Source: Haliotis cracherodii
Taxonomy: Eukaryota
DNA: 64,000 bases
Assembly: GCF_022045235.1 (NCBI RefSeq)
Contig: NW_027266341.1
Coordinates: forward strand, 56,296,001 to 56,360,000
Reading direction: 5' to 3'
The position numbers and the translations under genes were made by a program. Shown piece by piece: positions 6,786 to 54,802 of the stretch. Each line of letters begins with the position of its first letter. The stretch's first letter is position 1. The notes under the pieces are model-generated. The model had not been told where the DNA came from and made no database searches. It saw nothing but the letters and a program-made list of their open reading frames with translations.

Positions 6786-6854
6786 TATATACATCCTTAG
6801 CAGGGTCACGTGAAGACTACCCCTGAGTCACACTGCCAAACAAACATCACGTGA
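6786..6854 (-). promoter_or_regulatory. Gene 1 core promoter: TCACGTGA x2 + TATA
   Basis: TCACGTGA at 6806-6813 and 6847-6854; TATATA at 6786-6791; a TGAGTCA at 6824 is present only in this copy. Confidence 0.8.
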
Positions 6855-9724
6855 CCACATCATTTGGCGAATTTGTGTTATGTAACTCAGTTTTAGTGTC
6901 CAGAACATACCGATCGATTAGAATAAATCATGAAGAAATAAAAAATACAATTATATATGATGATACTGTTAATTTATTAATTGTTAAGATTCATTCAATT
7001 TCATAGTTATGTTCTGTAAAAATAAAAATAAAATAACTTGGTTCCAATACTTGTCAACAGAGGGTTGTAGAAAATTATGACTGAGGTAGAGACTTCGGCA
7101 CAAAAAAGCAGAAAGAGGAAACAAAATTTCCACTTCCTATGCATTTCCATAAAAAACTAGTCACATGTACTGTATTAGCGTTTTCGTGTAGCACACTTCG
7201 AATATTTTGTTGTTGCAAAATGACACACTCACATTGAAATTTAAAGAAAACAAAGTCGATTAATGACATATTTTCAAGTGTACAAACTCTATATCAATAG
7301 TATTTGGGACTGCCCTTTCAGACGTTTCCTCATTCATCCTCTATGCGCCATATCACGAAGTAATTGCAACCATCTTGAAACAAATATTGTGAGCCATTCG
7401 TATAATTTTCATCACAATTTGCCTTTATTGCCCAATGGAATGAATCCTTCCACAAGTTACTATCTGGTGCTGACGTTTCATATTTTCTGGTATTTTAGAC
7501 AATTGTCAATGTGAGATGAATGTCACTTTTAGATATTTCCAAAAGATCTTCAATATCATTCTCAGATAATCGAAATAAAGTGTTGATGTGTTTGAAGTAT
7601 ATTTATGCTGAACACTTTGAATGGGGCAGTTGTACTTGTTGTACTGTGTTTTAAATTTAAAGCTGGATAAACCGATTAGTTCTTTGACACTTAAATAACA
7701 TTACACGATTGTATAATTGACGATAATAATAACCATCGTAAGCTATTTAATGGGTATTTGCAGAGATACATGTAGGGGTACTAACTGGTTACTTTTCCCC
7801 ATTTATGTGTCTTTGTGTTATGTCATAGTCATTGGCATTAGCATGGTTGCTCAATTCAGCAATCAATTCTTAACATACATTTGTGAAGATGAAGTTACAA
7901 AACTTATACATTCAAGACAACGTGTATGGGATATTTCATTAATGTAATTAAATTGACCGACCATCCAGGTTGAAACGAGCTGTGAATATGCATACCTTCA
8001 TGCGTATCACGTCTCATTAAAGATTTAAGGCTACGGATATGATCTTGATACCTAGTGCGGTCAGAACAGGGTCGAACGTATTGCCCCGGGCGAGGAATCT
8101 ATCCCACGTCATCACAAGTTTACTCCAAATTGAATACATTTTTATAGAAAACATTGTAGAATATTTTTACCATGACATAATTAGCTTCAATCAAACATTC
8201 CATTCAATATTGAATTATTATTATTATAGTACTTTCTTCAATTATATTTGTTCACTATTTCACGCAAACATATCAATCAATTTGCATGTCAAACTTTTTT
8301 CAGATGCTGAATATGTTATTTAAAGCCATTGTATGAGTACGACTTTATCACTAGGAAACCTGGCACTGGTCAGACAGCTTATAGTCAGTTGGCCAGGGGG
8401 GAAAAAAAGATTTTCGTTCCGACATTTTCCTGTATTCCTTAAACCTTTTCTATTGCATAAAAGGGGGTATCTGTACACAATTTTCATTGGGTAGTAAGCT
8501 TGCAAGTGTGTGCGTGAATTTTCAGGGGGTCAAAATTGCATAAATGAAAGGAAACATGCATAATTTGACAAAATTGGCTGTAACATTTTTATGAAGACAT
8601 TAAACTATCCACATTATGTCTTTGATTAAAGGTAATGTGTTCGGTTGTCTGATTTTGGCAAACATTTTGTTTCATTTAACTGTTATTCTAATTCTCAGTG
8701 GAAACATTGATAAAAATAATGTTTTTTACTTCATTTTCAAATCGAGTGAGTAGGTAAAACACTAATTCCATTGAATTGAGACAATAAAACCACTATAACT
8801 GTGTATTAAAATCTCCCTGACCCATTGTACTATCCTATTCAAAGAACCAAATGCAAACATATTTCATAGGGGCTGATATATTGTATACAATGTTACCCCA
8901 CCCCTCAAAAACCAATTTTAACGAAGATTGCTTATTGAGATATGGTGGTAGATTATGTTGATGCAGTTGATGAGTGGAATAATTGCAACATTGCTTAAAA
9001 ACACCAAAATAGTAAACTCTTAAAGAAAAGTGATGTTTCAAGTTTTTCTGTGAGCATTTATGATGGCCATCTTGAATTTCAAGATGGCCGCCATTTTGAC
9101 CTGTTTTCAAAATCAAGATCTAATATAGTTCTTGACAACATGGTCATGTAATATATCATAAGAAAGCTTTAATTGTCTTTTCAATGATGTACATTATCCC
9201 CAACAATGAAAAAAGGAAATATTTAAAGCTAATTCCTCTAGCGACTTCAAACCATACCCAAATTTAGATTTAAATTTAAATGGACATATTTTCACTCAAA
9301 ATTGTAGGTTTACTGCAACCCCCTGATTGTGGACAAAAAACTACCACTGTAGCTTATTATCACCAGCTGGCATTGGAATTACCTATGTAAAAACAACAAA
9401 TTCATAAATTGTTTTATCTTAATTTGGAAACATTAAAATTAATGTATCATTTTTACATTAATTTTGGATATTGATTAAGTCCAATGGCCAGGACTTCATG
9501 CAAATGACACCATGCTTGCAAGTAACAAGCTACCTGGGTTGCAGAGTCTGTTAGTGCTGTTACATAAAGAAAAGGGGACAAAGTAAAATGCAAGTAATCT
9601 GTATCTTGTCACCTGTAAACTTCTCGAGAAAGACAATGTAGTACACGCAGGAGTTCAAATTAGCCGATCAAACTGAACACTGAAATGTACTAGTTTACCG
9701 TGTGAAAAAGGGAACAGGTTTATT

Positions 9725-9894
9725 NNNNNNNNNNNNNNNNNNNNNNNNNNNNNNNNNNNNNNNNNNNNNNNNNNNNNNNNNNNNNNNNNNNNNNNNNNNN
9801 NNNNNNNNNNNNNNNNNNNNNNNNNNNNNNNNNNNNNNNNNNNNNNNNNNNNNNNNNNNNNNNNNNNNNNNNNNNNNNNNNNNNNNNNNNNNNN
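9725..9894. other. Assembly gap (170 N)
   Basis: Run of N; other gaps at 22531-22690 and 44566-44720. Confidence 0.99.
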
Positions 9895-10161
9895 CAATTG
9901 TCATCTTCATATAGTGTTCTTGACCTTCACACATTAATGATGACAACACTATTGTAACTGTACCCACAAACGAAAGTGAGTTTTAAACACAAGTACTTAT
10001 TTAAACACTTGAAATTACATCACTAATCAAAACATTCACATTGAACAAGTTTGTTCACTGTATTATTTTACTTGGGAAGCTGTAAGACTTTGATGACTGA
10101 TTTAATGACATCACCAATGCTGAGTTACGAAACTGTTGACATATTCTTTTATACGATACGG

Positions 10162-10262
10162 TCACGTGATGCGCGCTTAACGGTAAAACTCTTGGTGTAA
10201 CGATCACGTGACCCTGTTAAGGATGTATATATGGAGGCAACACCATCTTGGTGGCATCAGTC
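10162..10262 (+). promoter_or_regulatory. Gene 2 core promoter: TCACGTGA x2 + TATA + Inr
   Basis: TCACGTGA at 10162 and 10204; TATATA at 10226; TCAGTC at 10257-10262. Confidence 0.82.
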
Positions 10263-10302
10263 ATCTCAACAGTGGTGTATCGTCTAGTCAAGTCTGTTCA
10301 CC

Positions 10303-11473
10303 ATGAAGGTAAGCTACCATTGTACCGATACAGTAATACAAGCATGAAATAGTGTCTCTCAGTTAATTTTGAAGCTTTCTTTAAATGAAATACTTAACTA
10401 AAATTGTATGTCCAAAACATGAGCAACCTGCTTGTAACCAGGTGAAGAAAACTTTATATATTAAGATGCGCCAAAGCACGAGGTTGCACCCATGTGATGC
10501 ACAGTGGTGTGGGTTGATAGGGAACTGACAAGGAATTGAAACGAAAATTTGTACCCAAAATATAATTCATATTTGATGTACCGGGAAACTACATTAATCC
10601 GTACACTTTTCCAGATTAACGAAAGATGGTAACGGATTAACGTCACTTTGTATACATCAAAGGGTCCAACCATTCCATATTCCAATGGATACAGTTAATA
10701 TGACTTTTAACATTTGTATGAAGGTGTTTAAAGTTTAAAGTTCTCAAACTCTAATGTGTTCTTATATTCAGGTCGTCATCGCTGCGTTGTCTGTGCTAGT
10801 TGCCTCTGCCTTGGCCCAAGTGCCTTTAGAAACTGGATCCGTCGGAGTCGGCACTGTCGGTGTTGCTGGTACAGGCTATGGCTACAACCCATACAACAGG
10901 AACCATGGTTACAATGGCTATGGCTACGGTAAAGGCGTTGGCAACGTTGGTGTTGGAAAGGTTTACGGCAACGGCTACACTCCCTACAACTATAACAACT
11001 ATGGCTACGGTAAAGGCGTTGGGAAGGTCGGTGTTGCCGGTCCCTTCGTTGCAGGACATGGATTTGGTCTTGTTGGACATGGACACGGACCTTTCGTTGG
11101 TGAAAACGGCATTGCTGGAAAGGGACATGGCTACGGCTACAACACCTACAACGGAGCTGGGAATGGAGTTGGTCTTGTAGGAAATGGACTCCTTGGACAC
11201 GCCGGACACGGCCTCGCAGAGCCCTTCGCAGTCGGCCACGGTGTTGCTGGAAAGGGACATGGCTACGGCTACAACCCCTACAACAACAACTACGGCTACG
11301 GTAAGAACGTCGGACATGGAGCTGGTCTTGTTGGAAATGGATTTGCTGGACATGGACCTTTCGTCGGACACGGAGTTTCCGGGCACGGTGTTTATGGACA
11401 TGGTGGACCCTTTGTTGGTCATGGAATTGCTGGTTCGTTCGTTGGCAAAGCCACTCCCTATTACTACCACTAG
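10303..11473 (+). CDS. Secreted Gly/Tyr/His-rich structural protein, gene 2 (type II), 235 aa; exons 10303-10308 + 10772-11473
   Basis: ATGAAG|GTAAG; CTAAT branch-like motif at 10751 and acceptor TTCAG at 10771; 463-nt intron. MKVVIAALSVLVASALA-QVPLETG; ends KATPYYYH; AATAAA at 11553. Confidence 0.92.
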
Positions 11474-11644
11474 GGACGTATGCTTGTGATGCCTGATGTA
11501 TGAATGCTTTGGTACTTTATTGATATGTTTTTGTATCCATTTACGAATGGGCAATAAATCTGTTGTTACATGTATGTTGTATTATTCAAGTACTGTGTAT
11601 AGTTTGGTCGTTGTATTACATGTAACGAATATTCTATAGAAATC

Positions 11645-11834: not shown

Positions 11835-11875
<41 letters not shown>

Positions 11876-15550: not shown

Positions 15551-16467
15551 ATACCTTTTGCCTCCAGTTGGTATTGAAATCATCCATGTGAAAAAAATCA
15601 ATTAATTGTTTTATTTTCATTTGCAAAAATAAAAACAGAATTTATCAGTTCTAAATTTGAATATGGATTGAGACTGCCGTGGGTCCAATGAACAGGGTGT
15701 CTTGTAGATGACACCACGTTAGCAAGTAGCACTTCGGTTGCAGATCTAGAGTCTATTACAAATTATGCTCCCGTATGCAATTAAGTCAAAACTCAAACAT
15801 AACTCAAATTCAGTTAAAGGGAACAACGTAGTTGATGAAAGAAATGTATGTGCATGTTTCATGGGGATTTTAAACTTCACAGGAAAAGCAATGTCGTACG
15901 CACTGGAGTTCAAATTAGCCGATCAAACTCAACACTGGTTTGTACAAGAATATGTTTATTGGCATGAGTCACCCAATAAGCAAGAAGTTAAAACATATAC
16001 GATATACCGCTGCCAGTGTAGTCGTAATATATGCAAAGACAGATGTTAAGATTACCTTTTAGCAGTTGATAGTCAACGTTGTATGAAAAGGTAAGAACCT
16101 GTATGTCCATTGTATTATCTGCGGTAACTTGTGCCAGAAACCTGTGATCGTGTGTTCGAATTCCTGTTAGACCTGATTATGTTTATTAGAATTGTCAGCA
16201 CCACACCTGTGCTCGAGGCTTTAGCCTCAGAAATAAAAACTTGCATCACTTCGTGTTTTCTTCCCATTTCAAACTGAAACGCCGTCAAATGACTGAAAAA
16301 CTGTTCAAAGCGGTGTTAAACCTACCTCACTCAATGATTCGTAACTTGTAATAAAAATACAACAATATATATGTTTTGAAAACATTATTTGGTAAGATAA
16401 TTTAACGATGCAAAAGGTATATACATCCATTATAAAACACATTCATACATCAGACAAGCATACGTCT

Positions 16468-17414
16468 CTAGTGGTAGTAATAGGGACTGGCTTTGGCGAC
16501 GAACGACCCAGCAACTCCATGACCAACAAAGGGTCTTCCATGTCCATAAACACCGTGTCCGACGAAAGGTCCATGTCCAGCAAATCCATTTCCTACAAGA
16601 CCAGCTCCATGTCCGACGTTCTTCCCGTAGCCGTAGTTGTTGCTGTAGGGGTTGTAACCGTAGCCATGTCCCTGACCGGCAACTACGTGTCCTACGAAAG
16701 GTCTACGTCCAAAAACAACGCCATCATGTCCGTAGACTCCTTGTCCGAGACTAGCTCCATACCCAGCAACTTTCCCAACACCTTTACCATAGCCATAGGT
16801 GTTGTAGTTGTTGGGGCTGTAGTCGTAACCATAACCTTTACCAGCAATACCTTTGTTACCAAAGCCTTTACCGTGGCCATAGTCATTGTAACCATTGTAC
16901 GGGTTGTACCCATAGCCTTTACCAGCATCACCGAAAGATCCGGAACGGATGGGCTTCTGTGCCAGGACAGAGGCGACTAGCACGGACAACACAGCGACGA
17001 CGGCCTGAATATAACAGAACGGTTCTAATGCAGTTTGAATCACAAAAATACATCTGATAATAACGAAAATATTTGTCCAAATCATAATAGATTCCATGTT
17101 GGAGAACAAAAACTTGCTCTATAATAGTAAATATATATTTCTATGAAAAGTAAAACTAAAGTAAGAAGTCGGGATAAATGTATTTTCTGTGATATTTTTG
17201 TTTGTAAATTTCAAGTTAAGACAGAACGGCTGAAGTTAATTTCGATTTAACTTTATCTTGGTGGAAATACCTTCGCACGATGAGTTATAAGCCACGTGTT
17301 TGTATGAAACAGGGCTTGGAATGGGCGCTTGATGGCTACCTTTTAAGAATTCCGAGGTAAGGGGATTAACCAAAACTGACTCTGATCCTAGATTAGAAGT
17401 TATCTTACCTTCAT
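16468..17414 (-). CDS. Secreted Gly/Tyr/His-rich structural protein, gene 3 (type I), 180 aa; exons 17414-17409 + 17004-16468
   Basis: Same two-exon structure; intron 17005-17408 (404 nt); MKAVVAVLSVLVASVLA-QKP; ends KASPYYYH. Confidence 0.9.
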
Positions 17415-17475
17415 GATGAACAGACTTGACAACAGTGTTGAGATGACTGATACCACCACTGTGGTCTTGCCTCCA

Positions 17476-17545
17476 TATATACATCTTCAGCAGGGTCACG
17501 TGAAGACTACCCCCTGAGTTAAACTGCCAAACGAACATCACGTGA
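17476..17545 (-). promoter_or_regulatory. Gene 3 core promoter
   Basis: TCACGTGA at 17496 and 17538; TATATA at 17476-17481. Confidence 0.8.
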
Positions 17546-20886: not shown

Positions 20887-20956
20887 TCACGTGATATGCG
20901 CTTAACGGTAAAACTCTTGATGTAACGATCACGTGACCCTGTTAAGGATGTATATA
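20887..20956 (+). promoter_or_regulatory. Gene 4 core promoter
   Basis: TCACGTGA at 20887 and 20929; TATATA at 20951. Confidence 0.8.
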
Positions 20957-21027: not shown

Positions 21028-22183
21028 ATGAAGGTAAGATACCATTGTACCGATACAGTAATACGAACATGAAATAGTGTCTCTCAGTTAATTTTGAAGC
21101 TTTCTTTAAATGAAATACTTAACTAAAATTGTATGTCCAAAACATGAGCAACCCGCTTGTAACCAGGTGAAGAAAACTTTATATATTAAGATGCGCCAAA
21201 GCACTAGGTTGCACCCATGTGATGCATAGTGATGTGGGTTGACAGGGAACTGACAAGGAATGGAAACGAAAATTTGTACCCAAAAATTAATTCATATTTG
21301 ATGTACCGTGAAACTACATTAATCCGTACACTTTTCCAGATTAACGAAAGATGGTAACGGATTAACGTCACTTTGTATACATCAAAGGGTCCAACCATTC
21401 CATATTCCAATGGATACAGTTAATATGCCTATTAACATTTGTATGAAGGTGTTTAAAGTTTAAAGTTCACAAACTCCAATGTGTTCTTATATTCAGGTCG
21501 TCATCGCTGCGTTGTCTGTGCTAGTCGCCTCTGCCTTGGCCCTAGTGCCTTTAGAAACTGGATCCGTCGGAGTTGGCACTGTCGGTGTTGCTGGTACAGG
21601 CTACGGCTTCAACCCATACAACAGGAACCATGGTCACAATGGCTATGGCTACGGTAAAGGCGTTGGCAACGTAGGTGTTGGAAAGGTTTACGGCAACGGC
21701 TACACTCCCTACAACAATAACAACTATGGCTACGGTAAAGGCGTTGGGAAGGTCGGTGTTGCCGGTCCCTTCGTTGCTGGACATGGAGTTGGTCTTGTTG
21801 GACATGGACACGGACCTTTCGTTGGTGAGTACGGCGTTGCTGGAAAGGGACATGGCTACGGCTACAACACCTACAACGGAGTTGGGAATGGAGTTGGCCT
21901 TGTAGCAAATGGACTCCTTGGACACACCGGACACGGCCTCGCAGGGCCCTTCGCAGTCGGACACGGTGTTGCTGGTCAGGGACATGGCTACGGCTACAAC
22001 CCCTACAACAACAACTACGGCTACGGTAAGAACGTCGGACATGGAGCTGGTCTTGTAGGAAATGGATTTGCTGGACATGGACCTTTCGTCGGACACGGTG
22101 TTTATGGACATGGTGGACCTTTTGTTGGTCATGGAGTTGCTGGGTCGTTCGTGGGCAAATCCAGTCCCTATTACTACCACTAG
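21028..22183 (+). CDS. Secreted Gly/Tyr/His-rich structural protein, gene 4 (type II), 230 aa; exons 21028-21033 + 21497-22183
   Basis: ATGAAG|GTAAG; 463-nt intron; signal-peptide-like MKVVIAALSVLVASALA; ends KSSPYYYH; AATAAA at 22270. Confidence 0.92.
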
Positions 22184-25100
22184 GGACGTATGCTTGTCAT
22201 GCCTGATGTATGAATGTTTTTGTACTTTATTGATACAATGTATGTTTTGGTATCCATTTACGAATGGACAATAAATCTGACGTTACATTCATGTTGTATT
22301 ATTCAATCGCTGTGTATATTTTGGTCGTTGTATTACATGTAACGAATATTCTATAGATCTCTTCCCCTGGCTGCGTTATACAAGGACACTTTCAAGTGGC
22401 ACTTGTTGTTACCTGTTACCCTGATAAAACAAGGACTGGTCGGCTTGGAGTATAATATTTCTAAGTGGACAATCATCTTACACTGCGGCATGGTATCTCA
22501 GTGAGTCAGCACTATAAAATCGTCATTGTTNNNNNNNNNNNNNNNNNNNNNNNNNNNNNNNNNNNNNNNNNNNNNNNNNNNNNNNNNNNNNNNNNNNNNN
22601 NNNNNNNNNNNNNNNNNNNNNNNNNNNNNNNNNNNNNNNNNNNNNNNNNNNNNNNNNNNNNNNNNNNNNNNNNNNNNNNNNNNNNNNNNNACGCTCTTGA
22701 AGCTGACGTTAAACTCCGTCATCTCACCTTATATAATATATAACAGTAGTTCTACCTTCATACTGTCATATAGCCTTTGACAAGTTTAGCAGGTTTCTGG
22801 CAATGACAAAGCGAGGGACAGGAAACATATTTTGGGTATCGAACGTAGAGTATGATGAGGGATCACAGGTGGCCCAGTCTTCTGAGTTTCGTTTCTTCGG
22901 CGTGCTGCATCCTGTGGTCTGGGCCTCAATTACCAGATTCGCCCTAGTTATGTTTATAGCTTTATCAACACCATATCTGTTTTGGTTGGTTTAAAAAAGT
23001 GGTAAACGTCTGAGACCTGCATCACTACGGGCGTCCTTCCACATGAAGCTGACACCTGTGACGTAACACAAATACGTTTCAATGTTGTATTAAACTCACT
23101 CACTCCCTATAAACAGTTAACATTGTTGACTGTCCGCCGCTTTCATTGCATTTCTAGAATACATATTTGTATGTATTGTGCTTTTAGTAAGATGCATTCA
23201 ACTTAATAATTGTTACATATAAAATGTGTTTAATGTGTTGGTTCATACTTGTTTAACAACACATGTCTTAGTCTATTAGAACTGAACTTAAACTGGCTTG
23301 ATACTAGAACTACTTTACCCACAGCCGATACAGGAAAATGTCAGCTAATGTTTCTAGTTTTGTGCTAAATAGAATGTGGAAGTTGTATTTTGGCCATATG
23401 TTAACACAAAGTTTTATATATTTTTGTTTGCCTTTCTATTTTGCTTTTTGAAGCTCATAGAAACGTGTCCCTCACTTAAGTCGTGCCATGATTCTATGGC
23501 TGTGGGTTCGACTACCACATTCGATCTGATTATATAAGGAAACACCTGAAAGCTACTCTTATGAGTTTTAATTCTCGACCACAGGTCACTATTATGACGT
23601 CAGCCCGCTCATCATTACGTTAAAAAAACACTGCATTTTGTAACCAATAAATGTGCATATCATTGTTTCGTAATATCCTATATAGCTACCGACAACTATT
23701 AAGGAAGAAATACTTTCCTATCAATATATGCTTTCGCAGTGATGCGGACGTTAATCAGCTGTTTTATTCAAAGGTGCTTATTGTGATTTGAAACCTCTAG
23801 TTGACCACTCAAAATTTTCCAAATTCAAGGAAGAATAATAATATCTTTAAAATTAATGTGTTTATCGGGCTATACGCATGAACGAGTGACCACTGCTTTA
23901 CTACTTAAAATTTCGTTTTCTTCTCTGACAAGCTTAAACTAATACAGTACTAAATTCTTACTGCTGTTGCAAGCACTTCACTAGTTTTGGTCGGTGTTTG
24001 CAATTGTTTTTGCATCCATCAACAAATCCAAGCGTGAGCCAATTTCAGGTCTGGGTCATGCGATTGAATTTAATTGGCGAATGTTGCATTCAACACCATT
24101 CAAGTAATATCACGGCGGGGACAAGAGGTGCCTTCAGGCATTGAACGCATACAAACAAGTGACTGAAAACATGAGAAATGGTCCATTTTATCGGGGAGGA
24201 TGATCATGATGAGCATGATCAACCACTCTTTCGACAGTCATTAGATACTGGGGATATTTTCTACTCGAAATAGCCGCAAGGTCCCGGTTATATGAAACAT
24301 CGACATATGTGTCTCTCAAACGATAAGCCGACGGAAAACTACGAAAATATTATCTCGACGATAAACACACAATACATGTACAGTCAAACACCGTTGTGTC
24401 GAACTTTCGGCTGTCTATAAGAAAAAGCATGATCTCTCCATATTCATTCTTTATTTACTATTTTAGGTTTTGTCGAACCTCGGACAACTTGAAACATTAA
24501 CGTAGGTCCCTTCAACTTCGACACAACGCTGTTTGACTGTATGTGTGCCCTATATATATACACCGTGCAAAAGCAGTCGTACTTCCGCAAAGGTTTTTAA
24601 TTATAATAGGTAACCTTTTTAGAACTTCAAGGATGAAGACCACAAACGTCACTTTGTTACTATTTAATCCCTCGAAGTTAATATACCGTCTCGGTGATTT
24701 AGCCTCTGTCCGGACAGCGGAATGTCGGTGGCTTGACCCCTTGACTGACTTAACAACGACAGTACTTGTTGTCCTGCCTGGTGCTGGGCATTTAATGGAC
24801 GAAACGGGACTGGTCGGAATTTAGTCAGAATAATGTGTCTGAGTGGAGTATCCGTGTTACACTGCGCCATGGTATATCAGTGCCCTAATTCTTAAAACCG
24901 TCATATGTCTGCATTAGGACAAGCAGCCACACACGTGCATGCACGTCGCTGTATAAGTAAAATAATCGTGAACATGACGTTAAAATCCCATTTCACCTCA
25001 CCTCACCTCACCTCACCTCACCTCACCTCACCTCAAACTCACCTCGGCTCTGCTACGCCTAAAGAACTGCCTATGTAGAGATTGTACAACCCTGCAATGA

Positions 25101-27219: not shown

Positions 27220-28210
27220 CTAGTGGTAGTAATAGGGACTGGCTTTGGCGACGAACGACCCAGCAACTCCATGACCAACAAAGGGTCTTCCATGTCCATA
27301 AACACCGTGTCCGACGAAAGGTCCATGTCCAGCAAATCCATTTCCTACAAGACCAGCTCCATGTCCGACGTTCTTCCCGTAGCCGTAGTTGTTGTTGTAG
27401 GGGTTGTAACCGTAGCCATGTCCCTGACCGGCAACTACGTGTCCTACGAAAGGTCTACGTCCAAAAACAACGCCATCATGTCCGTAGACTCCTTGTCCGA
27501 GACTAGCTCCATACCCAGCAACTTTCCCAACACCTTTACCATAGCCATAGGTGTTGTAGTTGTTGGGGCTGTAGTCGTAACCGTAACCTTTACCAGCAAT
27601 ACCTTTGTTGCCAAGGCCTTTAACGTAGCCATATTCATTGTAACCGTTGTACGGGTTGTACCCATAGCCTTTACCAGCATCACCGAAAGATCCGGATCGG
27701 ATGGGCTTCTGTGCCAGGACAGAGGCGACTAGCACGGACAACACAGCGACGACGGCCTGAATATAACAGAACGGTTCTAATGCAGTTTGAATCACAAAAA
27801 TACATCTGATAATAACGAAAATATTTGTCCAAATCATATTAGATTCAATGTTGGAGAACAAAAACTTGCTCTATACGCATAAATAGTAAAAGTAAGAAAT
27901 CGGGATGTATTTAATGTATTTTTTTGTGAAATTGTTATGTGTAAATTTCAAGTTAAGACAGAACGGCTGAAGTTAATTTTGACTTAACTTTATCTTGGTG
28001 GAAATACCTTTCTCCACAAGACACCCTTGTTTGGATTTTTGTGAAAAACAAGACGTTTAAGCTAGAAATAGCACGATGATTTATAAGCCACGTGTTTGTA
28101 TGAAGCAAGGCTTGGAATGGGCGCTCGATGGCTACCTTTTAAGAATTCCGAGGTGAGGGGATTAACCAAAACTGACTCTGATCCTAGATTAGAAGCTATC
28201 TTACCTTCAT
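27220..28210 (-). CDS. Secreted Gly/Tyr/His-rich structural protein, gene 5 (type I), 180 aa; exons 28210-28205 + 27756-27220
   Basis: Same structure; intron 27757-28204 (448 nt); near-identical to gene 3; AATAAA at 27141-27136. Confidence 0.9.
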
Positions 28211-28271
28211 GATGAACAGACTTGACAACAGTGTTGAGATGACTGATACCACCACTGTGATTGTGCCTCCA

Positions 28272-28341
28272 TATATACATCCTCAGCAGGGTCACGTGAA
28301 GACTACCCCCTGAGTTACACTGCCAAATGAACATCACGTGA
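28272..28341 (-). promoter_or_regulatory. Gene 5 core promoter
   Basis: TCACGTGA at 28292 and 28334; TATATA at 28272-28277. Confidence 0.8.
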
Positions 28342-31037: not shown

Positions 31038-31107
31038 TCACGTGATACGCGCTTAACGGTAAAACTCTTGGTGTAACGATCACGTGACCCTGTTAAGGAT
31101 GTATATA
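31038..31107 (+). promoter_or_regulatory. Gene 6 core promoter
   Basis: TCACGTGA at 31038 and 31080; TATATA at 31102. Confidence 0.8.
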
Positions 31108-31178: not shown

Positions 31179-32308
31179 ATGAAGGTAAGATACTATTCTA
31201 CCGATACAGTAATACAAACATGAAATAGTGTCTCTCAGTTTATTTTGAAGCTTTCTTTAAATGAAATACTTAACTAAAATTGTATGTCCAAAACATGAGC
31301 AACCCGCTTGTAACCAGGTGAAGAAAACTCTATACATTAAAATGCGCCAAAGCACGAGGTTGCACATATGTCATGCATAGTGATGTGGGTTGTTAAGGAA
31401 ATGACGAAACTTTGAACCCCAAAATTAATTCATATTTGATGTACCGTGAAACTACATTAATCCGTACACTTTTCCAGATTAACGAAAGATGGTCACTTTG
31501 TATATATCAAAGGGGCCAACTGTTCAGTATTCCAATGGATACAGTTAATATGCCTATTAACATTTGTATGAAGATGTTTAAAGTTTAAAGTTCTCAAACT
31601 CCAATGTGTTCTTATATGCAGGTCGTCATCGCTGCGTTGTCTGTGCTAGTCGCCTCTGCCTTGGCCCAAGTGCCTTTAGAAACTGGATCCGTCGGAGTCG
31701 GCACTGTCGGTGTTGCTGGTACAGGCTATGGCTACAACCCATACAACAGCAACCATGGTTACAACGGCTACGGTTACGGCAAAGGCGTTGGCAACGTTGG
31801 TGTTGGAAAGGTTTATGGCAACGGCTACACTCCCTACAGCTATAACAACTATGGCTACGGTAAAGGCATTGGGAAAGTCGGTGTTGCCGGTCCCTTCGTT
31901 GCTGGACATGGAGTTGGTCTTATAGGACATGGACACGGACCTTTGGTTGGTGAGAACGGCGTTGCTGGAAAGGGACACGGCTATGGCTACAACACATACA
32001 ATGGAGTTGGGAATGGAGTTGGCCTTGTAGGAAATGGACTCCTTGGACACACCGGACACGGCCTCGCAGGGCCCTTCGCAGTCGGACACGGTGTTGCTGG
32101 TCAGAGACATGGCTACGGCTACAACCCCTACAACAACAACTACGGCTACGGTAAGAACGTCGGACATGGAGCTGGTCTTGTAGGAAATGGATTTGCTGGA
32201 CATGGGCCTTTCGTCGGACACGGTGTTTATGGACATGGTGGACCCTTTGTTGGTCATGGAGTTACTGGGTCGTTCGTGGGCAAAGCCAGTCCCTATTACT
32301 ACAACTAG
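31179..32308 (+). CDS. Secreted Gly/Tyr/His-rich structural protein, gene 6 (type II), 230 aa; exons 31179-31184 + 31622-32308
   Basis: ATGAAG|GTAAG; acceptor TGCAG at 31621; 437-nt intron; ends KASPYYYN; AATAAA at 32387. Confidence 0.92.
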
Positions 32309-36340: not shown

Positions 36341-37810
36341 TATAAAAGCTACTACTACTACTATAAAAGCTACTAAGTACTACTACTATATGTACTCCTG
36401 CTACTTCTACTATACCTTTTGCCTCCAGTTGGTATTGAAATCATCCATGTGAAAAAAATCAATTAATTGTTTTATTTTCATTTGCAAACATAAAAACAGA
36501 ATGTATCAGTTCTAAATTTGAATATGGATTGAGACTGTCGTGGGTCCACTGACCAGGACGTCATGTAGATGACACCATGTTAGCAAGTAGCACTCTACTT
36601 CGGTTGCAGATCTAGAGTCTATTACAAATTATGCTCCCGTATGCAATTAAGTCAAAGCTCAAACATAACTCAAGTTCATTTAATGAGAACAACGTAGTTG
36701 ATGAAAGAAATCTATGTGCATGTTTCTTGCGGATTTTAAACTTAAGAGGAAAAACAATGTCGTACGCACTGGAGTTCAAATTAGCCGATCAAACTCAACA
36801 CTGGTTTGTACAAGAATATGTTTATTGGCATGATATTGGTAGTTACTTTGGTTCATGCTTCATCCTTGATATGATTGTTGATGTTGATGTTGATGTTGAT
36901 GTTTTGTATGTTCGACTACACGTTTGGTGATTAGATTTGAGACTAAACAGTTTGTTGTCATTCCTTTCATGAAAAGCTAATTGTGGATCTGTGGATGTTG
37001 TGTTATTTGAATTGTACATGTATACATTTTCGTCTCTATAGTTTTCAAATGTAACTGTGAGGCACTACGGTTACTACAGAACGGATGACAACTCTGCAAA
37101 TGTACACAATATTTTAACCTTTCAAAAAGAAGAAAATTAACACTTTCACTTCAAATTTGATACCCAATCTAAAACTACACATACAACATGTCTATCAACT
37201 GTAAATTTGCTCTTGCTAGCATAAAAAATGGATTGGTGTCTTTGTCAAAAGAGGGTAAATATTTGGATCGTTGTGTGGCAATTTTCTTTCATTCTGTCGT
37301 GGAAGCCCTGAACGTGTGTTATTTGTGCAAGGAAAATCTAATGCGAGGTCTGTGCAGACGCTGCGAAAAGGATTTAAGGAGTTGAAACATACGATACATG
37401 TGTCTTGGTATGTCAGGGAATGTGTGGATTTCGCAATTGACGACACAAGAGCATGAAGCATTTGCAATTGACGGCTCTTATTCCTTGTCTCATATAATAC
37501 ATGTATCTGTGTGTGTGATCAACCCTCGACTTGCTAAGACTTCCACAAACATATGGCTGATCAGCATACCTGCCTTTCTACTGAAGGGAGTTACAACAGT
37601 AAACAAAGCGAATATAATTGAATTATGGTTAAAACAAATATTGAAATATATTATTATTAGAGTTAAAAAAACTCAAATATAGTTTTCAATAAAAAAAATC
37701 ATGTCAACAGAATCAACATGAGATGGATAATTGTACCTGTAACACTTTGATTAATGGCACAACGAACGTTGAGTTACGCAACTGTTCACATATTCGCTTG
37801 TACTACGGTG

Positions 37811-37881
37811 TCACGTGATACATATGTAGCAGTATAATTTTTGGAGTAAAGATCACGTGACCCTGTTAAGGATGTATATAA
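37811..37881 (+). promoter_or_regulatory. Gene 7 core promoter
   Basis: TCACGTGA at 37811 and 37853; TATATAA at 37875. Confidence 0.8.
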
Positions 37882-37951: not shown

Positions 37952-39115
37952 ATGAAGGTAAGACACCACCGTACTGATACAGTCATACACACATCTAATG
38001 TTGTCTTTTAGTCAAGTTTGTTCTAATTACATGTGGTTTTTTGGCTTTACGGTTGCAGTGTTTTCGCAGCCCAGTAGCGTTTGGATAAACATTTGTAATC
38101 TATTTGTCCAATCCAATTTTCAATCGTATACTTTTATTTGCCGTGCAGTGTATCATGATATTAACATACTAACTTCGAGGACACCATGTTCAGAAACTGT
38201 GTGCATTTGCTTAAAAAGGAGTAAGTTGATATATGACTATACAACGAAGCATTGACCAACCAATGTATTTTAGCTTCTTTATTTCCGAATCAGAGCGATG
38301 TTATATTCTTGCTAAGTCACTTCTCATCTATATAACCGATAATGAGTCAACGAGTTATAAATGAAACTCACATCGTCATTAATTCATCTATATTGTGACC
38401 ATGTAAACACGATGTTATGGATACAGTTAATGTTACTATCTACATTTGTATGAAAGTGTTTGAAGTTTCAAATTTTCAACTGAAATGTATTTCACACATT
38501 CAGGCCGTCATCGCTGCGTTGTCCCTGCTAGTAGCCTCTGCGTTGGCCCAGGTGCCCTTTGGAGTCGGATCTGTCGGTGTTGCTGGTACAGGCTATGGTT
38601 ACAACACATACAACAAAAACTATGGTTACAATGGCTATGGCTACGGTAAAGGCGTTGGGAAAGTCGGTGTTGCCGGTCCCTTCGTTGCTGGACATGGAGT
38701 TGGTCTTGTTGGACACGGACCTTTCGTTGGTCATGCTGGTTCATTCGCAGGAAACGGACCCTTTGTTGCTGGAAAGGGACACGGTTATGGCTACAACTCC
38801 TACAATGGAGTTGGGAATGGAGTTGGTCTTGTAGGAAATGGACTCCTTGGACTCACCGGACACGGCCTCGCAGGACCCCTCACAGTCGGTGGACACGGTG
38901 TTGCTGGTCAGGGACATGGGTACGGCTACAACCCCTACAACAACAACTACGGCTACGGTAAGAACGTCGGACATGGAGCTGGTCTTGTAGGAAATGGATT
39001 TGCTGGACATGGACCTTTCGTCGGACACGGCGTTTATGGACATAGTGGACCTTTTGTTGGTCATGGAGTTGCTGGGTCCTTCGTCAGCAAAGCAAGTCCA
39101 TATTATTACCACTAG
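37952..39115 (+). CDS. Secreted Gly/Tyr/His-rich structural protein, gene 7 (type III), 205 aa; exons 37952-37957 + 38504-39115
   Basis: ATGAAG|GTAAG; acceptor TTCAG at 38503; 546-nt intron; MKAVIAALSLLVASALA-QVPFG; ends KASPYYYH; AATAAA at 39187. Confidence 0.92.
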
Positions 39116-44565: not shown

Positions 44566-45673
44566 NNNNNNNNNNNNNNNNNNNNNNNNNNNNNNNNNNN
44601 NNNNNNNNNNNNNNNNNNNNNNNNNNNNNNNNNNNNNNNNNNNNNNNNNNNNNNNNNNNNNNNNNNNNNNNNNNNNNNNNNNNNNNNNNNNNNNNNNNNN
44701 NNNNNNNNNNNNNNNNNNNNCTACCACTACTATAGCACAATACCTCCAGTTGGTATTGGAATCACCCATGTAAAAACAAATCAATAAATTGTCTTATATT
44801 TATTTGCATAAAAACATAAAAACAGAATGAATTATTTTTAAAATTGAATATGGATTATTAAGATTGGACTCTACCGGAGTTGCAGAGCTAGAGTCTATTA
44901 CAAATAATTCATTCATATGCAATTAAGTGAATGTTTAAATATAACTAAAGTTCAGTTAAAGGAAACAAAGTAGTTGAAGTAAGAAATACATGCTCATGTT
45001 TCTTGGGGATTTTAAAAAGAAAATGTAGTATACACATGAGTTCAAACATTTGTGTGGGGAAAAACTGTATAGATTTATTGGTGTCAAGTATGATATTGGT
45101 AGTTACTTTGGTTGGCTGAACCCTATTCCAGCCTCCAGATCTATATGGACCTGGTGTTTGGAGAAAATGAAAAGTTAAAAATGCCAAGTCTATCTCTAAA
45201 TCTCTAAATATTAAAACCATCACAAGTTTTTATGTATCACAACTATTGCCAAGAAAGTCTAAAAAATACATAAATTCCCGGATAGAAGAAAGTATACTCC
45301 CTTGTTTGATGGTGGCTACAATGAAACAGATAAGAAATGGCTATTCATGGGTTCACTCCTGACATCCTTATTGTATTTGATTCTTCATTTTTGATATCAT
45401 TGTTGTTGTTGATGTTTTGTATGGTCGACTACACTTAGGTTATAACAAGGGAGTTATGACAGTAAATATATCGAATGTAATTGAATTATTTTCTTAACAG
45501 ATTTTGAAATAAATTATTAGAATTGAAAAACATAAATGAGGTTTTCAATAGTGTATGACAATCATTTCAGCAGAAAATGAGAGGTCTAGTTCTAGTTTAA
45601 GCTTTAACACTGTCATGATTAAATTCTGCCTAGTGGTACAACGAGTTGCGCAACTGTTCACTTAAACGATGGG

Positions 45674-45743
45674 TCACGTGATACATACGTAGCGGTATAA
45701 CTCTTGGCGTAAAGATCACGTGACCCTGTTAAGGGTATATAAA
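45674..45743 (+). promoter_or_regulatory. Gene 8 core promoter
   Basis: TCACGTGA at 45674 and 45716; TATATAAA at 45736-45743. Confidence 0.8.
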
Positions 45744-45812: not shown

Positions 45813-47187
45813 ATGAAGGTAAGATACCATTGTACCGATACAGTCATGCAAACATCTAATGTATTCTCTCAGTCAAGTTCGATGCGTTTGAATATACGAC
45901 ACTGTTTGTTCTAATTCATCAATTTCAATTCTTAACTACAATTTCTTGTCTAAAAGATTAGCAACCGCTTGTAACTAAGTTGGGATAACTCAGTATATTA
46001 AGGTAAAGCAAAGCTCGGGGTTACACAGATGTGATGCACAGTGATGTGGGTTGGTTAAGCAAATGACAAGGAAAGGAAAATCTGCAGCAATCAATTGATT
46101 CGTATTTGATGTACAGCGAAATCTCAATAATCTGTACACAGTTTTTTATTAACGAATCAGATTCTGTGTTTTAAAAAAATAAGATCACCAACCTGACGAC
46201 AAGCGGTGATGTGTTTTGTGCAACGAGTATATCATTTCATTGTACATAGTTTATGTTCGTAACGTAATCACACAAATAAACTGCATTGCGAAAGAAAGTG
46301 TACACTCATGTTTTATTCTAGCTACAAATGAAGCAAACAATGAATTGTCATTCGATAGTGATGTATCGAGACGGGTATGATAGTTGCGTTTTGGACTTCA
46401 CTTCTGCAGTGTTTCCGTGAACGTTTGTTAAAAAATTGTCAAATCGAAGATACGAGGTTCACAAAATTTGTGCATTTGCTTTTATATATATATAAAACCG
46501 TGTTTGAATTTTGAACTCTAATGTATTTGTTATATTCAGACCGTCATCGCTGCGTTGTCCCTGTTAGTAGCCTCTGCGTTGGCCCAGGTGCCTTTCGGAA
46601 CTGGATCCTTCGGAGTCGGCACTGTTGGTGTTGCTGGTACAGGCTATGGTTACAACCCATACAACAAGAACTATGGTTACAACGACTATGGCTACGGTAA
46701 AGGCGTTGGGAAAGTCGGTGTTGCCGGTCCCTTCGTTGCTGGACATGGAGTTGGTCTTGTAGGACATGGACACGGACCTTTCGTTGGTCATGCTGGTTCA
46801 TTCGCAGGAAACGGACCCTTTGTTGCTGGAAAGGGACATGGCTATGGCTACAACTCCTATAATGGAGTTGGGAATGGAGTTGGTCTTGTAGGAAATGGAC
46901 TCAATGCACTCGCGGGACACGGCCTCGCAGGACCCCTCGCAGTCGGTGGACACAGTGTTGCTGGTCACGGACATGGCTATGGGTACAAACCCTACAACAG
47001 CAACTACGGCTACGGTAAGAACGTCGGACATGGAGCTGGTCTTGTAGGAAATGGATTTGCTGGACATGGACCTTTAGTCGGACACGGAGTAGCCGGACAC
47101 GGTGTTTATGGATACGGTGGACCTTTCGTTGGTCATGGAGTTGCTGGGTCGTTCGTTGGCAAAGCCACTCCTTACTACTACCACTAG
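45813..47187 (+). CDS. Secreted Gly/Tyr/His-rich structural protein, gene 8 (type III), 217 aa; exons 45813-45818 + 46540-47187
   Basis: ATGAAG|GTAAG; acceptor TTCAG at 46539; 721-nt intron; MKTVIAALSLLVASALA-QVPFG; ends KATPYYYH; AATAAA at 47267. Confidence 0.92.
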
Positions 47188-50150: not shown

Positions 50151-51260
50151 AAATTGTAGTTTTTAGAAATGGTGGTATTTTAAATCGCTTTGAAAAATGG
50201 TTCTATAACGGCTGTTTATTAAAAAAAGTTTCATATTATAAATATCTGGGGGTAATATTTTCTTCTAGACTGATTTGGACGAAATCATGTGAGAACCTGG
50301 CAGCTCAGGCTGTTAAGGCATGCATCCCTGTTTACAAATTATTCCAAAAAAATTCATTCCTATCATTCTCCACAGCTTGTAAAATATTTGATTGTAAAAT
50401 AAGTCCTATACTTTTATATGGTGCAGAAATTTGGGGGCTAAGGTATTTTGCATGTATAGAGAAAGTTCAAACCTCATATTTTAAATATTTTCTTGGTGTA
50501 GGTAAATATGCCTCAAACACAGCTATCTTAGGGGAAACTGGCCGCCACTATATGTTTGTCCAGAGTCAGATCAGAGCTATAAAATATTGGCTAAAATTAT
50601 TGCACATGGGATCAAATAGATATCCTGTACAATGTTATTACTTCCTTAAAAAGCTAGATGAGAAAGGTAAGCACAGTTGGGTGACAGATCTTAAAAATTG
50701 TTTATATGTTAATGGTTTTTCATATGTCTGGGACTACCAAAATGTTGTATCAATTTCAGGAAAGACTAAAAGATGTTGCATTTCAAAAATGGTTTGCAAA
50801 ATTGTCTGCTTCCAAATATTTATCTCATTATTCAAATGTTAAATCTTTGCTGAATGTAGAAAAATATATTGATTCTTTGCAGGATAAATCTCTCAGAAGA
50901 ACCTTCTGTAAATTTAGGATTAGCTTACATAATTTTAATGTTCAGTTACTACGTAAAAAACCCTCAGATAATGAAAATAGTGTATGTAGAAATTGTAACA
51001 AGGCTTGTATTGAAAGTGAAGACCATGTCTTTTTCACTTGTGATTATTACCAGACTTTACGGAAACATTATATTACCCAACTACAGGATATTTATGACGG
51101 TTACCTGTCACTTCCAAATATTCTTAACTGAAATAATGTCGATGTAATAAAACTGACTTCTGTATACCTGTATAAGATATTTAAATCTAGAAAAACGTGA
51201 CTAAATTTATATTGTACTGACATTGTAATATAGGCCATGTGGACCACATTACCGAATAAA

Positions 51261-51295
<35 letters not shown>

Positions 51296-51296
51296 G
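50151..51296 (+). mobile_element. 5'-truncated non-LTR retrotransposon (LINE, CR1/L2-group-like ORF2 3' part)
   Basis: Frame open from 50153: IVVFRNGG...YKYLGV...LLYGAEIWG...LGETGR...KYWLKL. Frameshift near 50750, then CRNC...EDHVFFTC (CCHC). AATAAA at 51255 + (TCTG)9. TSD ACTCTCTA(A)TCAG at 50138-50150 and 51297-51308. Confidence 0.9.
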
Positions 51297-52855
51297 ACTC
51301 TCTATCAGCTAAGTCACAGAAAATGACCACCTTCTATTTCAGACATTTTACACGACTCTTACGGCAGTCATTAGCTACTGGGGTGTTTTCTATCCGAAAT
51401 AGCCGTGAGGTCTAGGTTATGTGAAACGTAGAAATATATGTCTGTCAAACGACAAGCCGACGGAAAACAACGTTTTGCCTTAAGATAATATTATCTCGAC
51501 GGTACACAAACAATATATAAAATGTCAAACCCCTTAAACTATTGTTTCAAAGAAAAAGCTTGGTCCCTGCATATTCCTTCTTTATTCGTCATTTTTGTGT
51601 GTCGAACCGCGAATAACTGGAAACATTTACTTAGGTCGCTACAACTTCGACACAACGGTGTTTGACTCTATTCATGCCCCATCCATCTTGCATAAAACAA
51701 TCTTACTTCATCATAGTTGATGTCCTTTTTAGAAGGACTGCGTAAAACAAAAAGACGTTCAAAACAGTAGTTGTTGTTGCTCTGTCTGACGCTCGGCATT
51801 TTATAGATGAAATAGAACTGGTCGGCGATGAGACAGTATAATGTATCTGAGTGGAGACTCCTTGTTACACTGATCAGTCATGGTATCTCAATGGTCTAAG
51901 TTGTTAAACCGACTTAGTGTGCACTGGCACAAGCAGCCGCACACGTGCATGCACGTCGCTGTATAAGTGAAATAATCGTGAACGTGACCTTAAAAACTCA
52001 TTTCACTCTATTTCATCTAAAGAACAGCATATTTGGATATTATACAACCCTTCGTTGATTTGGATGTGAAACTGAACTCCATTTTGGTCAGTTGTATATC
52101 GACATCCTTGTACACCAACGACTTGAAATCATGAAAATCACGATCTCTCATGATCATATTCATTCGAAGAAGTTCTGTTAAAATGCCAATAATATTTTTC
52201 GCGGCATTAAAAACGTTTCACTTTTCATGGCATGAAATATTACTTAAAAGCTAAAAAGCGACAGACGAATATGTCATTTTAACAATTATCATATATAACA
52301 GCTCTGCTGACGATGTGCATATTCAACATTGAAACTTTATGCATGTAGGGGTACTGACGGGTCAGTGTTCCCGATTTATGTGACTAAGTGTTTTTTCATA
52401 ATCATTCACATTTCCATACTCACTCAATTTCATTATCACTTCCTAACATCCATTCGGTGAGGTTATGCAACAGAACTAATACATTCAAGACAACTTTTAT
52501 GTGATATTTCGTAAAACTTGTTATAGATCATTCGGGTCGAAGGTTTAGCTGTGAATTTGCATACCTTCATGTACACCACATCTCATTAAAGATTTAAACC
52601 TCGACACCGAGGGAAGTCACAATAGCTTCGAACGTATTGCCCCGGGCGAGGAATCAATGCACGTCATCAAAAGTTTACTCCAACTTGAACACATTTGTTT
52701 TGTAGAAGCAATGTAGAATATTTTGACCATGACATGTTTAGTACTAAGTTTGAATCAAACATTTGATTTATATATAATTTTACATTTTTGTAACTTAACT
52801 TAACTTACAACCATATTTTGTGTACGATTTATCACCAGATGACCTTCCAACTATT

Positions 52856-52972
52856 AGTTTGTTTGTTGTTTAACGCCGCACTCAGCAATATTCCAGCTAT
52901 ATGACGGCGGTTTGTAAATATACGAGTCTCGATCAGATAGTCCAGTGATTGACTTCATGAGCATCGATCTAC
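52856..52972 (-). mobile_element. 3' fragment of a third SINE family ((AAAC)n tail)
   Basis: GTTTGTTTGTTGTTTAACGCCGCACTCAGCAATATTCCAGC...CATGAGCATCGATCTA; paralogues at ~26375, 36146 and 61474. I recall this as an abundant abalone repeat (unverified). Confidence 0.6.
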
Positions 52973-53002
52973 AACCGCTACAACAACTTCTACTATAAAA
53001 GA

Positions 53003-53084
<82 letters not shown>

Positions 53085-54732
53085 ACTAATACTAATACTA
53101 CTATAACTACTACTACATGTAAGCTGCTACTTCTACTTTTGCCTATTACATTCAGTTGGTGTTGGAATCACCAATGTAAATCCAATCATTATTGTCTTAT
53201 TTATTTGTTCAAACATATAAATGCAGAATGTATCATTTTTGAATTTGAATATGGATTAAGATTGCCGTAGGTCCAATTACCAGGACTTTTTGCAGATGAC
53301 ACCATGTCAGCAAGTAGTACTCAACCTAGTTACAAATAATTCATTCGTATGCTGTTATGTGTAGGCTTAAATATAAATAAAGTTCAGTTGGAGCAAACAC
53401 ATTTGTTAATGTATGAAATACATGTGCATGTTTCTTGGAATTTTTTAACTTCACCAGAAAGACAATGTAGTGTACACAGGAGTTCAAATGAGCCGATCAA
53501 ACTCAACACTGGAATGTACAAGAATAAGTTTATATTGGTGTCAAGTATGATACTGGTAGTTGACCAAAAGTGCAGTTACATGTATTACGTTCATTTTAAT
53601 GGAACAAGGTAGATGCTGATAATCTGTATCTTGTAATCTGTAAACTTCACAATAAGACAATGTAGCACACACAGGAGTTCAAGTATGATATTGGTAGTTA
53701 CTTTGGTTCTCTCAACCCTATTCCAGCCTCAGTGATATGGGAGAGAGTTATCTTGTCATCTATATGGATCTGGTGTTAGGAGCCAACGCTTATGCAGAAT
53801 AAGAAAAAGTTGAAAATACCAAGACTGTATCTTAATACTATAAACGGAACCAATATCTAAATATCATAATCATCAAGCGTTTTATGTATTACAACTATCG
53901 CCCAGAAAGTCTAACAAAGACATAAACTGCCGGGGAGAAGAAAGTATACACCCTTCTTTGATGGTGGCGAAATTAAACAAACAAAAAATGGTTATTCATG
54001 GGTTCACTCTTGATATCCTAATTGTTGATGTTGATGTTGATCAGACTTGAGGTTAAACAGTTATTTTTGTCATTCCTTTCATGAAAAGTTAATTTGGACA
54101 CACGCGCATGTGTGTCATTTGAATTTAACAGGTATGCATTTTCTTCTTAACGTTTTCAGGTGTTCATGCGACAGTTCATGCGATATGAATCTGGTGTTTG
54201 GGGTAAACTATCGCTTGTACAGAAGATGAAAAGTTAAATATACCAAGATTGTATCTCTAAATATCAAAACCATCACGAGTTTTTATGCATCACAACTATT
54301 GCCCAAAAAATCTAAACAATACAAAAATTCCCGGACAGAAGAATGTTTACTCCCCTGTTTGATGGTTGCTAGAATGAAACAGACAAGAAATGGTTATTCA
54401 TGGATTCACTCCATTATCCTTATTGATGCTTTTTTTTAATTATTGTTGATGTTGATGTTGATGTGCTGTATGTTTGACTACACTTAGGTTACAACAAGGG
54501 AGATATGACAGTAAAGACATCGAATGTAATTGAATTATGTTTGTAACAGATTATGAAATAAATTATTAGAGTTGAAAAACATAAATGAGGTTGACAATAG
54601 TATGACACTCATGTCAAGAGAATGAAAATGAGAGGTATAGTTCTAGTTTAAGCTTTAACACTGTCATGATTAAATTCTGCCTAGTGGCACAACGAGTTGC
54701 ACAACTGTTCACATATTCACTTAAACGATGGG

Positions 54733-54802
54733 TCACGTGATACATATGTAGCGGTATAACTCTTGGGGTGAAGATCACGTGACCCTGTTAAGGGTATATA
54801 AA
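54733..54802 (+). promoter_or_regulatory. Gene 9 core promoter
   Basis: TCACGTGA at 54733 and 54775; TATATAAA at 54795-54802. Confidence 0.8.

Follow-up and report, generated by a model that had tools for sequence, protein, structure and literature searches.

The gene array and its promoters

The DNA considered here is a window of 64,000 nucleotides from Haliotis cracherodii (contig NW_027266341.1, C78:56296001-56360000), examined together with its surroundings, 223 kb in all; coordinates are relative to the window unless a contig is named. Inside the window lies a portion of an array of two-exon genes arranged in tandem. The first exon of these genes codes for Met-Lys and is followed by an intron and a single further exon, and nine of their promoters carry twin E-boxes, i.e., two perfect copies of the 8-mer TCACGTGA upstream of a TATA box.

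The second exon codes for the remainder of a predicted signal peptide and for a low-complexity body with 25-30% Gly, 8-13% Tyr, and 5-7% His. The closest proteins are Haliotis RefSeq models of the same family (P0001-P0005), which bear the automatic names shematrin-like protein 2, chorion class A L11-like, and scale keratin-like; the array proteins matched no Pfam family (0 families for the 3/3 tested). The model P0001 is 70% identical across 98% of the query and also opens with MK and a signal peptide, so the Met-Lys start of the array gene model is supported. Atlas matches of the array proteins to insect cuticle proteins score 0.90 or less and are taken as leads only.

The genes fall into three types. 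Genes 1, 3, and 5 (type I) belong to the minus strand and face genes 2, 4, and 6 (type II) head to head; the latter are on the plus strand, as are genes 7, 8, and 9 (type III), and much of the array is made up of a unit of ~10.7 kb repeated three times with 85-97% identity between copies. Gene 1 (5698..6713) has its Met-Lys exon at 6708-6713 and exon 2 at 5698-6270, giving a model of 192 amino acids whose start agrees with P0001, while genes 3 (16468..17414; exons 17409-17414 and 16468-17004) and 5 (27220..28210; exons 28205-28210 and 27220-27756) code for 180 amino acids each. The type II genes are gene 2 (10303..11473; exons 10303-10308 and 10772-11473; 235 amino acids), gene 4 (21028..22183; exons 21028-21033 and 21497-22183; 230 amino acids), and gene 6 (31179..32308; exons 31179-31184 and 31622-32308; 230 amino acids). 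The type III genes are gene 7 (37952..39115; exons 37952-37957 and 38504-39115; 205 amino acids), gene 8 (45813..47187; exons 45813-45818 and 46540-47187; 217 amino acids), and gene 9 (54872..56267; exons 54872-54877 and 55623-56267; 216 amino acids). The promoter of gene 10 (63330..63504, plus strand) and its exon 1 (63499-63504) are also inside the window; exon 2 lies just beyond the edge with its frame open, and the model has 268 amino acids.

On the minus strand, a sequence scan places the distal and proximal E-boxes of gene 1 at 6847..6854 and 6806..6813, with the TATA box at 6785-6791 and an initiator-like TCAGT at 6756-6760. The corresponding boxes of gene 3 are at 17538-17545 and 17496-17503 (TATA at 17475-17481) and those of gene 5 at 28334-28341 and 28292-28299 (TATA at 28271-28277). 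On the plus strand, the distal and proximal boxes are found at 10162-10169 and 10204-10211 in gene 2 (TATA at 10226, initiator-like motif at 10257), at 20887-20894 and 20929-20936 in gene 4 (TATA at 20951), at 31038-31045 and 31080-31087 in gene 6 (TATA at 31102), at 37811-37818 and 37853-37860 in gene 7 (TATA at 37875), at 45674-45681 and 45716-45723 in gene 8 (TATA at 45736), and at 54733-54740 and 54775-54782 in gene 9 (TATA at 54795).

The observation of twin E-boxes in nine genes, which an earlier note on this DNA had made from the letters alone, is thus confirmed, and so are its details. The start-to-start spacing of the boxes is 42 bp in all of these genes but gene 1, where it is 41 bp, and the proximal site, described as lying about 20 bp from the TATA box, precedes it by 22 bp in 7 genes and by 20 bp in 2, gene 8 among the latter (start to start), so that the two boxes sit about two and six helical turns upstream of TATA. 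Read on the gene strand, all nine pairs have the arrangement GTCACGTGAT ... (A/T)TCACGTGAC. The spacer has diverged as described, gene 1 being identical to gene 2 or gene 8 at 17/33 spacer positions and at 8/8 positions of both boxes. The window contains 19 copies of the 8-mer, where shuffling predicts 1.11: the nine pairs and one single site at 63367. Such a shuffle significance was rejected as a test, since the nine promoters are paralogs of one another that fall into about 3-4 lineages; because the copies descend from one promoter, the 18 sites are not 18 independent events.

Related or similar genes span about -50 kb to +105 kb relative to the window; those on the left are called m1-m8 and those on the right g11 and p12-p15. 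Fifteen family promoters were located (m4-m1 and g1-g11), and some counts below cover 16 array promoters; for p12 and p13 no first exon could be placed confidently. A TATA box is followed in every located promoter by an initiator-like motif, TCAGT or, in m1, TCTGT; the start-to-start distance between the two is 31 bp in 14/15, and the transcription start is inferred from them. At least one CACGTG is kept in 15/15. The pair itself is less regular, and the statement that it stands invariant before every TATA box holds for genes 1-9 only: a perfect pair is present in 10/15 located promoters. Gene 10 retains the distal box (63367-63374) upstream of its TATA box at 63422, its proximal box having been destroyed by an 8-bp deletion. 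Paralog m1 carries TCACGTGG and CCATGTGA at 42 bp, and m2 carries TCACGTCG and CCACGTGA at 43 bp; m3 has the proximal box only, with a decayed site 34 bp upstream, and m4 has a single box 30 bp from TATA. The exon-2 frames of gene 10, m1, m2, m3, and m4 are open, so that three of the 15 genes (gene 10, m3, and m4) are single-boxed copies with an open frame.

A third element is the 8-mer TT(A/G)(C)(A/G)(C/T)AA, which 8/16 promoters carry at 28-37 bp upstream of the distal box and which the earlier note does not mention. It resembles PAR-bZIP (D-box) or C/EBP sites, that is, sites of basic leucine zipper (bZIP) factors. Its carriers are genes 1, 7, 8, 9, and 10 together with m1, m2, and g11, at a homologous position: TTACATAA at 6878..6885 on the minus strand in gene 1 and, on the plus strand, TTACGCAA at 37774-37781 in gene 7, TTGCGCAA at 45646-45653 in gene 8, TTGCACAA at 54697-54704 in gene 9, and 63330-63337 in gene 10. 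The older paralogs m1 and m2 have the perfect palindrome TTACGTAA at this site, and in genes 2-6 it has decayed.

Conservation of the E-boxes

A maximum-likelihood tree of the nine promoters was built with the boxes excluded, and changes along it were counted by parsimony. On this tree, 35 changes fall on the 34 spacer columns, 53 on 57 columns of the upstream 60 bp (19 gappy columns dropped), and 40 on the first 40 intron columns, while each 8-mer takes 0. With a chance of 0.33 that a flank column stays unchanged, the probability of eight given columns all being unchanged is 1.3e-4; corrected for a scan over 110 columns, it becomes 0.009 for eight columns and 0.001 for the distal box, which forms an isolated island of 10 columns in flanks that are only 50-60% alike between types. 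No run of unchanged columns in the promoter flanks is longer than 3. When the 12 two-box paralogs are considered, the distal box takes 2 changes against 12.7 expected (P = 3e-4). The 8-mers are therefore more conserved than their flanks in a tree-aware test, which is the comparison that the earlier note had proposed as a check.

Contigs of four runs from organisms A-D, in which paralogs are mixed, were further compared with the gene 4 promoter. Of the 40 listed differences (83 in all), the spacer accounts for six and a flanking T for one, and the CACGTG cores are hit by none. Purifying selection on the E-boxes is likely from these comparisons. The idea that the pair arose when a 42-bp segment with box and TATA was duplicated in tandem and then decayed is unsupported, only 1/12 promoters giving p<0.05 uncorrected.

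A conserved promoter module and its possible link to tyrosinase

The reading that we favor, with a probability of about 0.5, is that the twin boxes, class-B E-boxes conserved as a pair, were copied along with each gene from a single ancestral TATA promoter, and that they act as largely additive sites for a basic helix-loop-helix (bHLH)-zipper activator, most likely MITF, that would switch on the array together with tyrosinase. Gene duplication would multiply the whole promoter module, and one bHLH-zipper dimer per box, most likely of MITF, would recruit the machinery at the TATA box. The boxes would be activating, two of them raising the output or sharpening the response, with the bZIP-like site as an optional addition. 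The paralogs show what the module tolerates, namely shifts of 1-2 bp and the loss of one box. The products would be secreted, and tyrosinase would cross-link them via their Tyr and His residues into a tanned matrix.

According to PMC10539308, TCACGTGA is the best MITF site, and a 5' T and a 3' A favor MITF and disfavor MYC; both flanks are present in 18/18 sites of genes 1-9. These features are shared with the promoters of MiT/TFE factors (MITF, TFEB) that carry CLEAR (coordinated lysosomal expression and regulation) boxes, in that perfect sites with the MITF-preferred flanks occur in two conserved copies near the predicted start. The array differs from them in that its genes encode predicted structural rather than lysosomal proteins, and vertebrate pigment targets use CATGTG, the core of the vertebrate M-box, which occurs in the proximal position of paralog m1 only. 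The full palindromic 10-mer GTCACGTGAC, the CLEAR consensus, is found in 1/16 promoters (m4), and the boxes of genes 1-9 score 9/10 each. The motif alone cannot name the binding factor.

The proposed link to tyrosinase draws on work in the same genus. PMC13544226 reports that tyr-1 and tyr-2 of H. iris are both enriched in mantle and are activated by MITF in reporter assays and in yeast one-hybrid assays. Three tyrosinase genes were found on C2 (54518001-54578000) in the present genome; two are the counterparts of H. iris tyr-1 and tyr-2, with exact matches to the quantitative PCR primers (20/20 each). The published primers of the tyr-1 bait map at 19/22 and 17/20 and bracket 116 bp (C2:54526555-54526670). 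The sole CACGTG box of this bait homolog is ATCACGTGACC, and the same 11-mer occurs in 8/16 array promoters (m3 and genes 2, 4, 6, 7, 8, 9, and 11), so that the tyr-1 stretch holds the 11-mer of most proximal boxes. We place MITF above the other candidate factors because the tyr-1 bait homolog shares this 11-mer with the array. The two loci differ in layout, tyr-1 having a single box ~145 bp before a TATA-like motif and no pair beside TATA. More exactly, two tyrosinase paralogs have TCACGTGAC at ~145 bp before the TATA-like motif, together with a candidate noncoding exon. In addition, two TCACGTGA sites 77 bp apart (C2:54574023 and 54574100) precede a candidate noncoding first exon ~7.5 kb upstream of the tyr-2 ortholog, an exon that was assigned after the boxes had been seen.

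The suggestion of the earlier note that MITF connects these Tyr-rich substrates to a tyrosinase program therefore stands in part: the counterpart of the MITF-bound tyr-1 bait contains this 11-mer too, and the motif does not name the factor. As the binder of the boxes, MITF has somewhat less than an even chance, and USF would be a distinctly more tentative candidate. A fuller version, in which abalone MITF goes beyond pigmentation and runs a tanning program of tyrosinase and, through two same-face dimers four turns apart at each promoter, its Gly/Tyr/His-rich substrate array, so that enzyme and substrate are coupled for a sclerotized biomaterial, appears doubtful.

A number of observations weigh against the favored reading. 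The proximal box is only modestly above the downstream block in conservation (P 0.02 for nine genes, 0.08 for twelve), and it makes the weaker case alone because a block conserved through exon 1 begins at this box. The published tyr-2 bait maps to an intron, away from the twin TCACGTGA of the tyr-2 ortholog, and the forward primer of the H. iris MITF reporter matched only elsewhere. The reporter tests used overexpression in human cells (PMC13544226). Table S24 of the same report gives a tyr-1 cycle threshold (Ct) that barely shifts after RNA interference (RNAi) against mitf (24.6-24.8 to 24.7-24.8), while the reference shifts by ~2.2 cycles, so that the apparent effect on tyr-1 arises from the shift of the reference gene; the tyr-2 Ct values after RNAi equal the control plus exactly 1, 2, and 1. 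The in vivo leg of the evidence for MITF acting on tyr genes needs caution because of these oddities.

The motif is also open to other factors. USF1 is able to bind MITF's sites as well (PMC10539308), and SREBP also binds TCACGTGA (PMC8431614); vertebrate pigment genes and the Pteria tyrosinase promoter use CATGTG and not CACGTG. TCACGTGA is common, with 34,384 copies genome-wide against 11,242 for a reversed control, i.e., three times as many, and it is present in 3/30 upstream regions of bHLH genes (1.5 kb each), so its sharing with tyr-1 could be due to chance. MITF or USF exons were not recognized in a helix-loop-helix (HLH) scan of this genome (100 candidates scored, 48/55 matches translated), and a PF11851 search for the MITF locus gave no match, which is uninformative. 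No CACGTG occurs near the candidate starts of p14, p15, m5, m6, m7, and m8, six more distant cluster genes, and the GGLYGG Gly/Tyr-rich arrays of abalone, considered as co-targets, have 0 TCACGTGA in the 46 kb sampled. The box is thus no general signature of Tyr-rich secreted genes, to judge from these sequences. By automatic protein name, a comparison of names only, the array genes have no match in the H. iris tables of PMC13544226, and no reference to the array was met in the passages and tables of that paper that were consulted.

Taken as a whole, the array promoter is a real, conserved but conventional module with a possible MITF-tyrosinase link. Multiple class-B E-boxes before TATA are known already, and MITF control of mollusc tyrosinase has been published; new is the proposed connection of the MITF site at tyr-1 with a candidate substrate family. 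No paper dealing with this array or its promoters turned up in a literature search, subscription papers lying outside its coverage. The base-level regulators of mollusc structural-protein genes are mostly unmapped, and the array offers a natural allelic series of one promoter, with two boxes, one box, spacings of 41-43 bp, and degenerate boxes. If MITF drives the array, shell or cuticle tanning and pigmentation would share one switch; if not, it would be an ordinary USF-type promoter. The published abalone MITF expression and reporter system suits a direct test of this tyrosinase regulator on the candidate substrates.

Alternative readings

The same anatomy could serve a ubiquitous binder, USF or SREBP/Mlx, that boosts the TATA promoter, with tissue specificity coming from elsewhere, e.g., the bZIP-like site, and with no link to tyrosinase. 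The 5' GT flank is preferred by USF, and the expected layout is present, with GTCACGTG or CACGTGAC flanks upstream of TATA and a fixed TATA-initiator distance. The motif is common in the genome and enriched ~fourfold upstream of control genes, and the genome contains an exon that we take to be SREBP-like. The adenovirus USF site ends in CACGTGACC, like the proximal box, and the adenovirus major late type of promoter (PMC10570711) has CACGTGACC just 5' of a TATA box with an initiator-like motif; one box is present there and two in the array. The match to the tyr-1 site and the abalone MITF data argue against such a binder, although neither excludes USF. We regard this alternative as unlikely.

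A strictly phased switch for the whole array, as the earlier note had envisaged, in which two bHLH-zipper dimers on the same DNA face, four turns apart, must cooperate, is unsupported by the variation among the paralogs. It is true that all 12 two-box promoters lie at 41-43 bp, which corresponds to 3.9-4.1 turns, that the spacer indels are all of 1 bp whereas the upstream 60 bp has gaps of 5-8 bp, that the distal site has decayed in m3, where the spacing is 34 bp, and that several bHLH factors form tetramers on two E-boxes. However, a single inherited ancestral spacing falls within 1 bp of whole turns ~29% of the time, and the box-box spacing drifts by 2 bp and the box-TATA distance by 4 bp (20-24 bp), the TATA-initiator distance being tighter. 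Genes 10, m3, and m4 have one box. Finally, both boxes are covered by one contig of organism B whose spacer is shortened by a 14-bp deletion, leaving 28 bp or 2.67 turns; this is a single contig of depth 9 and possibly a weak allele. The promoters probably do not need exactly four turns between the boxes, and obligatory cooperation of this kind seems quite unlikely.

Control by the clock, for which CLOCK:BMAL1 (with a Clockwork-orange-type repressor) would act on the boxes and a PAR-bZIP factor upstream of them, giving daily or tidal deposition, is improbable. CACGTG is the clock E-box, the upstream 8-mer of 8/16 promoters resembles a D-box or C/EBP site, and exons that we take to be CLOCK-, BMAL1-, and Cwo-like are present in the genome. 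Mussel tyrosinase mRNA moreover cycled under some conditions, according to bioRxiv 10.64898/2026.02.23.707208. The array shares with the BMAL1:CLOCK tandem E1-E2 elements the presence of two tandem E-boxes, both perfect here, but cooperative tandems have spacers of 6-7 bp or 16-17 bp (PMC3043000), and the hexamer spacer of the array is 36 bp. The start-to-start distance of 42 bp lies between the extrapolated in-phase values of 33.5 and 44, and the bZIP-like site has decayed in genes 2-6. The daily rhythm raised in the earlier note is weak on account of this difference in spacing.

That the boxes have no function and are identical merely through recent duplication or homogenization by gene conversion is largely refuted and very improbable: the triplication of the ~10.7 kb unit agrees with it, and conversion could produce the block, 83/91 identical between types I and II, at whose edge the proximal box stands, but the distal box is an island with a scan-corrected P of 0.001 and a core has been retained by the oldest paralogs as well as by related organisms.

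Occurrence of the layout in the genome

A genome-wide CACGTGAC-TATA regulon was not found, with 197 matches against 209 in the control. The combination TCACGTGACC-TATA occurs 52 times against 8 in the control, 11 of the rows being the array; 28 other such loci were inspected, all of which lack a second box at 41-42 bp upstream, and several belong to repeat families. Twin boxes followed by TATA give 37 rows against 13 in the control, of which 13 are the array and most others resemble minisatellites; no gene was recognized at the four nonrepeat twin-TATA loci and the one 19-bp twin inspected. There are 157 twin pairs with spacers of 32-36 bp where 5 would be expected; satellites make up most of those listed.

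A 41-bp satellite (C1:456256-458634) and several minisatellites of 42-44 bp have TCACGTGA in every unit and account for the bulk of the listed genome-wide twins, the search pattern selecting these lengths. Another repeat family, dispersed in the genome, has TCACGTGACC at 9 bp before TATA and an open reading frame with a basic N-terminus, and probably represents a mobile-element promoter. The 19-bp twin, two TCACGTGA directly before TATA, is at C15:4163611-4163657, with no gene recognized within 8.6 kb. One TCACGTGA on C23 was set aside, as it lies in a coding exon.

Neighboring genes and other features

Most PF00264 matches on C78 resemble hemocyanin units and were left out of the tyrosinase comparison. 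The third tyrosinase gene on C2 has a small downstream exon that scores weakly, below the cut-off, as a chitin-binding peritrophin-A domain.

The array proteins contain 5-17 GHG motifs each, in addition to Tyr and His, which recalls the histidine-rich proteins of squid beak; only 0-1 GHGxY motifs are present per protein (11/11 models). Two or more GHGxY motifs are linked to phase separation in the squid beak proteins (PMC6884462).

Inverted repeats of 243-258 nucleotides with 90-95% identity lie at the exon-2 3' ends and flanks of oppositely oriented genes (5683-5942, 11231-11487, 16453-16697, 21956-22198, and paralogs). They are more alike than the introns, either by selection on the C-terminal PYYYH region or by gene conversion; the last 28 codons, on which a gene-conversion check was made, are too small a sample to decide between the two.

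At the edge of the cluster, a gene without an E-box extends from -50221 to about -46100 and has a Met-Lys exon 1 and two exons, its predicted secreted product being rich in Asn, Lys, Asp, and Ala (~870 amino acids). On the other side, a gene without CACGTG at 101727-104580 has the same first-exon layout and codes for a repeat protein rich in Tyr, Asn, Lys, and Asp (~16% Tyr).

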